64,000 nucleotides of DNA from sequence record OL631484.1. One strand, written 5' to 3'. Made by a program: the position numbers and the translations under genes. Every line of letters begins with the position of its first letter. Position 1 is the first letter of the stretch. This DNA comes from Escherichia phage ECML-606-1. Positions 45,611 through 46,949 of the stretch are shown piece by piece. The notes below the pieces were generated by a model. The model was not told the DNA's origin, ran no database searches, and was given only the letters and a program-made list of their open reading frames with translations.

Positions 45611-46474
45611 TCAATCTTTTTTCTTACCTAAATACGCGTCAAGCACCATTTGGTCGGGCTTCATGTTCATTAGCTCGCGCAGCTTGTTTTTTGGTACCAG
45701 CTGGACGGCCTGCGTTTCCCAGCCCATCGCTACCGGGGAACCACCGACGCGCTTCGCCAGATACATGCGAGAAACAGACGTGGTGCGCTCAAAGTCACCC
45801 AGCACGCCAGTGATCTCGATCTGTAGCCCGGACTCCTCCCATGTCTCTTTGATGGCGTTCTGCTGGAGCGTGAGCCCCGGCTCAGTGCCACCCTTCGGGA
45901 AAGTGTTCTGGTAGCCGCCGAAAGCGTTGGTCGGGCTGATAATCCACACGCGACCGTCAGGCTCCTCAATGATGACGCCGGACGCTGGACGCTTCCCGGC
46001 TGGTACCATTAACGGCTGCTCGGTCATCTGTTTGGTGCCCTTCACAAAGGCCCAGCCCGCGTCGGTTTTCGGTGCGCCAGTCCACGGCGCGACCGGGACG
46101 CCATTCAGCTCCTGCGGTGCTGCACCATTAGGCGTGAAGGTGGCCACCTCGTTGCTCGCGGCCCACGTTGGCGCTTCGGTCGGTTTGCTCGGATGGTTAA
46201 CCACGACGCGGTTGCCCTTCTCACCCAGTCGCGGATGGTGGACAATCTTCGTCGGTAGTCCTTTGCTGGCGGTAGTCCTGTGCGTGCCATACGGCGTCGT
46301 GGGCAGCGCTGGCTTGCGGTAATAGGCTTTCTTGGCCTGAGGCTTCGCAGGCGCTTTGGGGGCCGCAGGCGCATCAGGTTTGGCTGCTGCCTTCCCGTTG
46401 TCGTGCGGCTTCACCCATACGCCATCGCTCCGGCGATAGCCCTTCACCTGCGCTTTCAGGAAAAGTTTAGTCAT
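45611..46474 (-). CDS. Nudix hydrolase with basic Pro/Ala/Lys-rich N-terminal extension
   Basis: Nudix box GGTEPGLTLQQNAIKETWEESGL (G-x5-E-x7-REUxEExGU pattern); start placed at ATG 46474 with RBS GGAAGG rather than track start 46588. Confidence 0.7.
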   Translation of the reverse strand: MTKLFLKAQVKGYRRSDGVWVKPHDNGKAAAKPDAPAAPKAPAKPQAKKAYYRKPALPTTPYGTHRTTASKGLPTKIVHHPRLGEKGNRVVVNHPSKPTEAPTWAASNEVATFTPNGAAPQELNGVPVAPWTGAPKTDAGWAFVKGTKQMTEQPLMVPAGKRPASGVIIEEPDGRVWIISPTNAFGGYQNTFPKGGTEPGLTLQQNAIKETWEESGLQIEITGVLGDFERTTSVSRMYLAKRVGGSPVAMGWETQAVQLVPKNKLRELMNMKPDQMVLDAYLGKKKD

Positions 46475-46949
46475 TGCCTTCCACTCCCAGCATCCATTGC
46501 GCCATGGATTCGACGCTGGACTGCACGCGGGCGGCGATTTCTGCATCCTTCCCGCCCTTGTCAAATGCCTGGTAAATACTGATCGCAAAGCGGGCCATCG
46601 CGTGCGCGACGATCAGCGCGGGATCCGTTTCATCCTTCGCCAGCCCCTTCACGTTCTGGATCCAGCGCGGCAGCGCGAAGTCATTCCAGCCCGGCAGCAC
46701 GCTAAAGCCTGCGGTGTTACCCACAAAGATGTTAGCGGTGTTCAGCGCCTGCGCACGGTCGGCCTCCAGCGCTTCTTTCTCAGTCATCTGGTTGGCCTGC
46801 ACCTTAGCGATGCGTCCCACGATGTCCTTGGCGAAGTTATTCAGGATGGTGCGTGCCACGTTGATATCGCCCAGATAAACGCTGCCATCAGCAGCGTTCA
46901 GACCTTCGATAAACCACGTTGGATCAGTATGTCGGTTCAATTCAGCCAC
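46467..46949 (-). CDS. hypothetical protein
   Basis: 160-aa ORF between giant protein and Nudix gene. Confidence 0.35.
   Translation of the reverse strand: MAELNRHTDPTWFIEGLNAADGSVYLGDINVARTILNNFAKDIVGRIAKVQANQMTEKEALEADRAQALNTANIFVGNTAGFSVLPGWNDFALPRWIQNVKGLAKDETDPALIVAHAMARFAISIYQAFDKGGKDAEIAARVQSSVESMAQWMLGVEGND

Follow-up and report, generated by a model that had tools for sequence, protein, structure and literature searches.

A phage Nudix hydrolase linked to an ADP-ribosyltransferase is a candidate virion-delivered enzyme acting on ADP-ribose units

Does a phage that encodes a giant ADP-ribosyltransferase (ART) also deliver an enzyme that handles the ADP-ribose arising from it? The question is raised by a locus in Escherichia phage ECML-606-1 (sequence record OL631484.1), in which we analyzed a stretch of 64,000 nucleotides, hereafter the window. 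On its minus strand, a gene for a Nudix hydrolase follows closely behind a gene for a 2257-residue protein that ends in an ART domain. Head-packaged ARTs such as T4 Alt are a long-standing model of host takeover, and their companions and the handling of ADP-ribose around them are little known outside T4. A preliminary description of the locus proposed that the two enzymes form a functional unit, in which the Nudix protein could process ADP-ribose or products derived from nicotinamide adenine dinucleotide (NAD), trim ADP-ribosyl modifications or hydrolyze host nucleotide signals. We find the unit well supported, and we tentatively propose that the Nudix protein is a virion-delivered accessory enzyme.

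The Nudix gene (45611..46474, −) encodes 287 residues, with an ATG at 46474 and a TGA at 45611–45613. The range 45611–46949, assigned to it in the preliminary description, comprises two genes: Nudix and an intervening gene for a protein of 160 residues, p160 (46467..46949, −; GTG start). A mechanically called open reading frame (ORF) of 325 residues with a TTG start (45611..46588) was rejected as too long. The ATG at 46474 is preferred because homologues begin at MTKL, because Enterobacter phage phiT5282EW annotates an 864-nucleotide coding sequence, and because a GGAAGG Shine-Dalgarno sequence precedes this ATG, which overlaps the stop codon of p160 (ATGACTAA). The region tested is 98% identical to phiT5282EW, a 95.5-kb genome in which all genes are annotated 'hypothetical'.

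The preliminary description was right to see a clear Nudix box. The protein matches Pfam NUDIX over residues 161–271 (E = 2.6e-12; 47.3 bits against a cut-off of 21.1). The box, GGTEPGLTLQQNAIKETWEESGL, at residues 195–217 (positions 45824–45892), deviates from the consensus GX5EX7REUXEEXGU at two places: arginine is replaced by lysine (position 209, K or R in the family) and the first glutamate by leucine. The catalytic, metal-binding glutamates E210, E213 and E214 are invariant in 206 of 206 phage and bacterial homologues, as are G195 and G216 of the box, and about 15 further residues are invariant across the same set. Both the Nudix fold, at residues 161–287 (45614..45994, −; defined by Pfam, fold matches and conservation), and a profile score above the curated threshold place the protein in the Nudix superfamily (PF00293). 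From the clear Pfam and fold matches and the intact catalytic glutamates, it is predicted to be an active pyrophosphohydrolase.

The N-terminal extension, described earlier as one basic Pro/Ala/Lys-rich segment, has three parts, as defined from the alignment of homologues and an AlphaFold (AF2) model of the protein with a predicted local distance difference test score (pLDDT) of 88.4. The first is a leader of 24 residues (MTKLFLKAQVKGYRRSDGVWVKPH; residues 1–24, 46403..46474, −), conserved in phage homologues. In the AF2 model these residues, LFLKAQVKGYRRSDGVWVKPH, are predicted to form short hairpins, with pLDDT of ~92 at residues 11–20. The second is the segment that fits the earlier description: a linker of 51 residues (25–75; 46250..46402, −) recognized by its composition of 24% Ala, 18% Pro and 16% Lys, with an isoelectric point of 10.2. 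It is disordered (pLDDT 58–67), gapped in the alignment and varies in length between relatives. The third part is a conserved, Trp/Pro-rich pre-domain of 85 residues (76–160; 45995..46249, −) with invariant H80, W131 and W141. It has no Pfam match, and comparison with PDB structures returned nothing beyond the Nudix fold. A match of residues 7–62 to ribosomal protein uL14 (E = 0.03) was discounted as an effect of composition.

We then asked how closely the Nudix gene is tied to the ART. The ART domain, of the R-S-E type, occupies residues ~2090–2257 of the giant polyvalent protein (46959..53732, −), at 46962..47465 (−). It matches Pfam ADPrib_exo_Tox (4.8e-9) and the PHROG family 'Alt-like ADP-ribosyltransferase', with a weak NCBIfam match to SpvB, and its motifs appear in order: R2143 (TTFGRKFSL), STS at 2170–2172 and ExE at 2214–2216 (E2214-K-E). 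Homologues of the giant protein are annotated 'ADP-ribosyltransferase toxin / phage particle associated protein' in a Yersinia phage and 'ADP-ribosyltransferase' in phages Dolphis and ST4. As described before, Nudix is the second gene downstream of this ORF. The gap between the TAA of the giant gene and the GTG of p160 is 9 nucleotides and contains GGGGG. In all five relatives inspected (Yersinia fHe-Yen8-01, Pseudomonas Dolphis and Touem01, Aeromonas ST4 and Morganella Mecenats66; Nudix identity ~42–67%), the giant gene is followed by a gene for ~160–165 residues, then by Nudix and next by a gene for a 142-residue protein, p142. Pseudomonas phage Jeremy also encodes the Nudix. Mecenats66 is a myovirus, and the paper describing it does not discuss the genes of this module (PMC9503643).

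To sample more widely, IMG/VR was scanned with the Nudix family alignment, yielding 80 loci, of which 48 have adequate flanks (at least 6 kb upstream and 4.5 kb downstream). All 48 encode a HipA-like kinase domain and the unnamed domain that follows it in the giant protein. An ART of the window's type was found by tblastn in 22 of the 48. The other loci have a tail of 250–300 residues with the same R / S-x-S / E-x-E pattern, and profile-profile alignment with hhalign identifies this tail as homologous to the ART (probability 99.8%, E = 1e-27). The order kinase-ART / p160 / Nudix / p142 recurs in 63 loci. In ten loci (L046, L049, L050, L052, L064, L079, L081–L083 and L085), Nudix, kinase, unnamed domain and ART form a single ORF of 1240–1708 residues, and in six (L013, L020, L033, L038, L040 and L071) Nudix and kinase form one of ~500 residues; the latter fusion is also present in the protein database (P0106). 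Other polyvalent proteins combine kinase, Nudix, ART_PolyVal and LPD38 (L138, 2506 residues; L149, 2522 residues) or MuF, a PARP/HYD1-like domain and Nudix (L145, 1027 residues). These three proteins probably carry ARTs of other clades, with ART matches below the Pfam gathering scores.

The reciprocal comparison starts from the kinase. Among 57 viral loci seeded by the kinase domain, with at least 4 kb on each side and ART calls checked with Pfam, 38 have both ART and Nudix, 4 have ART without Nudix, none has Nudix without ART, and 15 have neither. Nudix is therefore present in 38 of 42 loci with an ART and in 0 of 15 without one. A first two-by-two table based on tblastn (p = 2e-12) overstated the association and was discarded: Pfam found ARTs of other types in loci scored as 'ART-negative'. 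By its distribution, the Nudix appears to follow the ART rather than the kinase. Conserved synteny, translational coupling, repeated fusions and co-occurrence in viral contigs together make the ART-Nudix unit of the preliminary description well supported. What that description overlooked is that the kinase is as constant a companion of the Nudix as the ART, that the extension contains a leader and a pre-domain, and that the family is mainly cellular.

How would such an enzyme reach the host? The GenBank record of Yersinia phage fHe-Yen8-01 applies the label 'particle associated protein' to three products: the giant protein, the 160-residue protein and the Nudix. The same laboratory used this term in earlier phage work for proteins detected by virion proteomics (PMC8309999). 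The module is encoded with packaging and structural genes, and in relatives the Nudix is fused to kinase-ART, MuF and LPD38 polyvalent proteins. The leader motif, LKA...GYxRxDGxxVxxH, also heads the giant ART proteins of related phages (L027, and at L020:4795, L022:4531, L032:4015 and L039:4155), as well as smaller, otherwise unrelated proteins of the cluster, namely Dolphis gp116 (L003:7409) and ORFs at L016:11515, L020:12082, L031:2051 and 2753, L047:11171 and L058:11183. Some cluster proteins bear the motif twice. An ART is present at 69 of 70 leader-bearing loci, and the leader is absent from 72 of 80 bacterial homologues. We propose that these proteins share the leader as a tag for capsid loading or ejection, perhaps one used for cargo in general. 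Head-packaged ARTs and Nudix proteins have been predicted in myoviruses before (PMC9503650). In the window itself, a proposal that the giant protein starts with the same leader was not confirmed by the hidden Markov model (HMM) of the leader. It survives as an alignment made by eye, with a gap, which suggests a degenerate copy.

Outside phages, one genome per species was scanned and the best 80 of at least 185 bacterial relatives were kept. Most are ~215 residues long and match residues 78–282 at 43–57% identity, thus comprising pre-domain and Nudix fold without leader or linker. Active-site and family-specific residues are identical between phage and cellular copies, and homologues bear generic names such as 'MutT' and 'YjhB'. 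In profile searches, kinase, ART and p160 were found in the flanks of only 8 of the 80 loci, which are prophage-like. By this distribution the family is mainly cellular, widespread and proteobacterial. Since the cellular copies consist of pre-domain and Nudix alone, and the leader is tied to the ART, the phage appears to have recruited a cellular enzyme and added a delivery-type N-terminus.

The cellular neighborhoods provide a second context. Clustering of neighboring genes placed a DraG-type ADP-ribosylglycohydrolase (ARH) beside the Nudix, or within 2 kb, in 8 of the 80 species (L238:10620-11711, L186:10454-11371, L187:6372-7451, L214:10591-11541, L236:2888-3850, L195:8421-9275, L178:7024-7992 and L239:11824-12897); the assignment rests on a phmmer match to DraG at 2e-16. 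These ARHs belong to two lineages, 25–30% identical to each other, and occur in both gene orders, for example Nudix-ARH-p142 in L214 and ARH-Nudix-p142 in L195. Judged by gene neighborhood, the family is thereby linked to ADP-ribose turnover without involvement of the phage ART. Further contexts are pheS-pheT-ihfA-merR-Nudix in seven loci of one lineage, an Mrr/recombinase island and a DUF445 gene. A Pfam scan of 10 neighboring bacterial genes yielded one Mrr-type restriction endonuclease beside a recombinase; the rest were housekeeping genes or had no assigned function.

What kind of Nudix enzyme is this? The closest solved relative by sequence is the Aquifex Ap4A hydrolase 3i7u (6e-9 for the sequence alone and 4e-10 for the profile of the family), and the other best solved relatives are Thermus Ndx1 (an Ap6A hydrolase), Deinococcus DR1025, NUDT6 and E. 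coli RppH. M. tuberculosis Rv2985/MutT1 is also among the best sequence and fold matches. In the alignment the box begins with FPKG, as in Ndx1 and the Aquifex enzyme, and the basic residues K194, R175, R230, R236 and R242 are invariant in the family. NCBIfam gave sub-threshold matches to RppH, MutT1 and a Deinococcus Nudix: the RppH models scored 15–18 bits against cut-offs of 116–241 (17.6 against 241 in one case) and MutT1 scored 15.4 against 475. The PHROG nudix families matched weakly (3e-6 and 2e-5). A tblastn search of 50,697 phage records found only 8 that match the Nudix, none of them T4-like. On these comparisons the protein is best placed in a separate family, outside the ADP-ribose pyrophosphatase (ADPRase), NudC, RppH-equivalog and T4 NudE families. 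Its nearest neighbors handle polyphosphate-bridged nucleotides and RNA 5′ ends, which appears compatible with ADP-ribose substrates. When acting in vitro on ADP-ribose attached to proteins, RppH and NUDT16 leave phosphoribose behind (PMC5030157; PMC4680915). For T4 NudE, activity has been reported on ADP-ribose, Ap3A and flavin adenine dinucleotide (FAD) (PMC9503650), as well as on NAD caps (bioRxiv 10.1101/2024.04.04.588121).

Taking these observations together, we give a rough probability of 45% to the reading that the Nudix is a virion-delivered accessory enzyme acting on ADP-ribose units. In this scheme a cellular Nudix, comprising the 85-residue pre-domain and the fold, would have been acquired, and the 24-residue leader and basic linker added in the phage. 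The giant protein, p160, Nudix, p142 and an 84-residue protein would be expressed from one transcription unit, presumably late. Through the shared leader, the Nudix would be loaded into the capsid with the giant protein and delivered into the host cell at infection, where it would cleave the pyrophosphate bond of ADP-ribose units arising from ART chemistry. One possibility is that the enzyme would destroy free ADP-ribose, which arises as a by-product and probably serves host counter-measures as an inducer or signal. The other is that it would trim protein-linked ADP-ribose to phosphoribose, with release of adenosine monophosphate (AMP). The choice of substrate is favored by two independent contexts, the ARTs of three clades in phages and the ARH neighbors in 8 of 80 species, which point to ADP-ribose. 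In a stronger form of the proposal, the ART and then the Nudix would act on the same host proteins, cutting the ADP-ribosyl mark to a phosphoribosyl-protein 'lock'; we regard this as improbable. If true, the mark would no longer be removable by host ADP-ribosylglycohydrolases or macrodomains, and the cellular ARH-Nudix(-p142) operons would be a host-side counterpart working on the same chemistry.

Several observations weigh against the ADP-ribose reading. By sequence and fold, the nearest relatives of the Nudix are hydrolases of diadenosine polyphosphates (ApnA) and RppH, not ADPRases, and comparison of the Nudix with sequences and PDB structures gave no specific similarity to solved ADPRases. 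Dunn et al., in 1999, reportedly described the ADPRase (NudF) subfamily as having a conserved proline about 16 residues after the Nudix box; at the corresponding position, 233, 205 of the 206 homologues have Ser or Thr and none has Pro. In NudC, an NADH pyrophosphatase, the box is followed by an SQPWPFPxS array, and the N-terminal domain binds zinc. The array is absent from the 206 homologues, the sequence after the box being QIEITGVLGDFERTTSVSRMY, and direct reading of residues 1–160 found no cysteine cluster. With regard to delivery, virion association is here a GenBank annotation of a relative whose Nudix is 67% identical, and a literature search found no paper describing phage fHe-Yen8-01. 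The leader HMM, run on the window, detected the Nudix only (E = 2e-13) and left the giant protein undetected. With regard to the pairing, the association in the kinase-seeded loci (Fisher's exact test, 1.8e-10) is uncorrected for shared ancestry, and kinase-ART proteins occur without a Nudix (L123, L126, L135, L142, L128 and L129), so that an ART can do without the Nudix. Of the 80 bacterial homologues most are solitary: 72 lack a neighboring ART, and 72 lack a neighboring ARH. Finally, polyvalent proteins habitually fuse biochemically unrelated effectors (PMC5512222); fusion therefore proves co-delivery, not a shared pathway.

This last point leads to an alternative that we consider somewhat unlikely, in which the Nudix is an ApnA/RppH-type enzyme, an independent effector that shares only the delivery route with the ART. 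It would hydrolyze Ap4A–Ap6A alarmones, or remove triphosphate, NAD or Np4A from RNA 5′ ends, and so reshape stress signaling or trigger decay of host mRNA. The best sequence and fold matches (the Aquifex enzyme, Ndx1, Rv2985 and RppH), the weak NCBIfam matches to RppH and MutT1 and the FPKG start of the box are in its favor, and the five invariant basic residues would suit a polyphosphate or RNA substrate. A HipA-like kinase accompanies the Nudix in every phage locus (48 of 48), and HipA-type kinases target aminoacyl-tRNA synthetases, the makers of Ap4A. The genes pheS and pheT precede the Nudix in seven bacterial loci; this neighborhood, however, stems from a single lineage, and the RppH scores lie far under their cut-offs. 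Also against this alternative are the restriction of the Nudix to ART-bearing loci among those with the kinase, its fusions to ARTs of three clades, and the ARH neighbors in eight bacterial species. The preliminary description had named two findings as fatal to its proposal. One, an RppH-like RNA decapping enzyme unrelated to ADP-ribose, is approached by the RppH-like affinity of the protein; the other, a lack of co-occurrence with the ART, is clearly false.

A role in counter-defense is quite unlikely in our estimate and overlaps the preferred reading to the point that sequence cannot separate the two. Here the Nudix would destroy NAD-derived immune messengers on entry, such as cyclic ADP-ribose isomers or other ADP-ribose-containing signals, or it would remove free ADP-ribose so that ADP-ribose-sensing regulators of the host fail to switch on ARH-centered counter-systems. 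The virion annotation fits such early delivery, the bacterial ARH-Nudix pairs place the family in contexts of ADP-ribose turnover, and a role of this kind was suggested earlier for phage Nudix, Macro and NADAR proteins packaged in virions (PMC9503650). Against it, no component of a defense system and no signal-specific feature was found; the 10 bacterial neighbor genes scanned with Pfam included the single Mrr-type restriction endonuclease noted above. Very unlikely, finally, is a housekeeping MutT-like enzyme taken from the host, which would lie beside the ART only by inherited gene order. The family is indeed mostly cellular and stand-alone, with 'MutT' and 'YjhB' among its names, but inherited order does not account for repeated independent fusions to kinase and ART and to MuF/LPD38 polyvalent proteins, for a leader and linker that are phage-specific additions, for a relative's Nudix annotated as virion-associated, or for linkage kept at 42–57% identity and across two gene orders.

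In the giant protein the HipA-like kinase domain (residues ~1680–1900; 48033..48695, −) is identified by invariant kinase-type residues, with a GGSNEG loop, K1710, DAWLGNWDVVGLAKDN and RVDAGG. As a single sequence it has no Pfam match, and a profile search of the PDB gave nothing significant (LepB at E = 1.5); a Pfam scan of 31 family members one by one gave weak matches to HipA_C in 15 and to HipA_2 in 4. At least 600 viral contig stretches encode the domain, compared with 154 for the Nudix, frequently within a MuF polyvalent protein that also has a zeta-toxin, ATLF-like zincin or LPD38 domain. Between kinase and ART lies the conserved unnamed domain (residues ~1901–2089; 47466..48032, −), which was matched by tblastn in 48 of 48 loci and has no Pfam match. 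The giant protein also contains three copies of the motif EGD[TM]+xGxxGxxhhxxG+W, at 52193, 50513 and 49202 (−; residues ~514, 1074 and 1511), each preceded by an acidic, Gly/Lys-rich stretch. These copies may mark domain boundaries, or processing or docking sites.

The small protein p160 has 99 homologues, all of ~160 residues and none annotated. It is all-helical, predicted as a six-helix bundle (pLDDT 88.7), and the predicted structure returned no informative structural match. We regard p160 as the partner of the ART and not of the Nudix, because in 113 of 123 loci its gene comes immediately behind the ART, and this holds for both gene orders, the one described above for 63 loci and Nudix-kinase-ART / p160 (15 loci). 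The pattern recalls toxin-immunity or chaperone pairs, yet the homologue in the Yersinia phage is annotated as virion-associated. The downstream neighbor p142 (45121..45549, −) is conserved and accompanies the Nudix at most phage loci, as it does at 21 of the 80 bacterial ones. Examples in bacteria are L214:11517-11864 and L195:10622-10963, and the bacterial cases include ARH-Nudix-p142 operons. Its invariant residues are W2, R25, R27, D48, Y49, R52, N75-F76-K77, W93 and Q100, and searches of Pfam, PHROGs, NCBIfam and the PDB returned nothing for it.

On the minus strand, the gene order continues from the giant protein, p160, Nudix and p142, the last two separated by a 61-nucleotide spacer, to a hydrophobic protein of 84 residues (44867..45121, −), a tail-fibre gene (41929..44778, −) and a terminase gene (39268..41883, −), so that tail-fibre and terminase genes lie directly downstream of the module. 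A terminator-like hairpin 3′ of the 84-residue gene (44859–44840, −; 7-bp stem with 6 GC pairs, then a T-run) closes the unit and is the sole strong hairpin of this kind on the minus strand of the region. In a promoter scan of the region the total of sigma-70-like sites was not above that of shuffled controls. One such site lies in the Nudix/p142 spacer at 45586–45614 (−), with TTGACC, 17 nucleotides and TATTAT (10 of 12 matches). The terminase, at 871 residues, is unusually long, with no separate small-subunit gene nearby, an arrangement that has been discussed for the related Morganella phage Mecenats66 (PMC9503643). A single-copy tRNA-Asn (GTT) lies at 38467–38542 (+). An ORF of 91 residues at 3330–3605 (+) has homologues in bacterial loci that match Pfam Bac_DNA_binding (HU/IHF), for example L207:9350-9649; by this relationship the ORF appears to specify an HU/IHF-like protein. 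Close relatives of the Nudix (P0006, P0010, P0019, P0054, P0069 and P0113) lie on contigs of ~100–102 kb in Salmonella enterica assemblies, which points to persistence of phages of this group in sequenced isolates, either as episomes or as carrier-state contaminants.

The locus is a compact, widely conserved and genetically separable set of five parts, made up of the kinase-ART giant protein, p160, the Nudix, p142 and the short shared leader. The leader may serve as a capsid-targeting tag and, if sufficient to load cargo, would be useful for engineering. The Nudix family is common in Proteobacteria yet uncharacterized; even if the enzyme merely degrades free ADP-ribose or ApnA, this would provide an annotation for several hundred proteins now called 'hypothetical' or named generically.

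How does the module compare with known systems? Phage T4 likewise combines an ART of the Alt/VIP2 R-S-E type with a Nudix: Alt is delivered with the DNA, and NudE.1 acts on ADP-ribose, Ap3A, FAD and NAD-capped RNA. To our knowledge, the T4 genes for Alt and NudE.1 are unlinked and NudE.1 is not known to be packaged. Here, unlike in T4, the genes are clustered, translationally coupled and, in relatives, fused. The Nudix differs from ApnA hydrolases and RppH, to which it is ~20% identical over ~120 residues, in having Lys for Arg in the box and the extra 85-residue pre-domain, and its genomic context is ADP-ribosylation rather than RNA decay. With the ADPRases (NudF/ADPRase, NUDT5 and NUDT9) it would share the proposed reaction, ADP-ribose to AMP and ribose-5-phosphate, and the pairing with enzymes that remove ADP-ribosyl groups; it lacks specific sequence kinship to them, the proline 16 residues after the box and an evident domain-swapped N-terminal domain. 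Legionella SidE, which joins a mono-ADP-ribosyltransferase (mART) and a phosphodiesterase, likewise provides an ART and a pyrophosphate- or phosphodiester-cleaving activity in one delivered set. The hydrolase here is a Nudix and not a SidE-type phosphodiesterase, and the phosphoribosyl 'lock' would be analogous in logic.

The published bacterial systems centered on ARHs, including DraT/DraG (PMC9503650, section 3.8), have a parallel in the cellular homologues of the Nudix, which lie beside DraG/ARH genes in eight species. The published systems contain Nudix-HTH (helix-turn-helix) sensor regulators and phosphatases, whereas the Nudix here is catalytically intact and stands alone, sometimes with p142. 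The closest parallels are the polyvalent and head-packaged effectors described earlier (Iyer et al. 2017, PMC5512222; Iyer et al. 2022, PMC9503650), which likewise include a giant protein with ART and kinase beside terminase and tail genes, MuF and LPD38 domains in relatives, and a Nudix predicted to be packaged and injected. The kinase of the present module is HipA-like, in contrast to the truncated Ser/Thr/Tyr kinase of the 2017 work on polyvalent proteins (PMC5512222). The published phage Nudix clades are of the T4 NudE and NadM types (PMC9503650); at the level of BLAST the present Nudix is of neither type, and it has its own pre-domain. The module further differs from the published effectors in the leader common to Nudix and giant protein and in the constant partners of ART and Nudix, p160 and p142. 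Computational studies have already reported polyvalent proteins, head-packaged ARTs encoded near portal and terminase genes, and, in myoviruses, Nudix, Macro and NADAR proteins packaged in the virion (PMC5512222; PMC9503650). What is new here is the Nudix family with its pre-domain, its cellular origin and its ARH neighbors, together with its exclusive occurrence, among kinase-bearing viral loci, with ARTs of three clades, the shared leader and two constant small partners.

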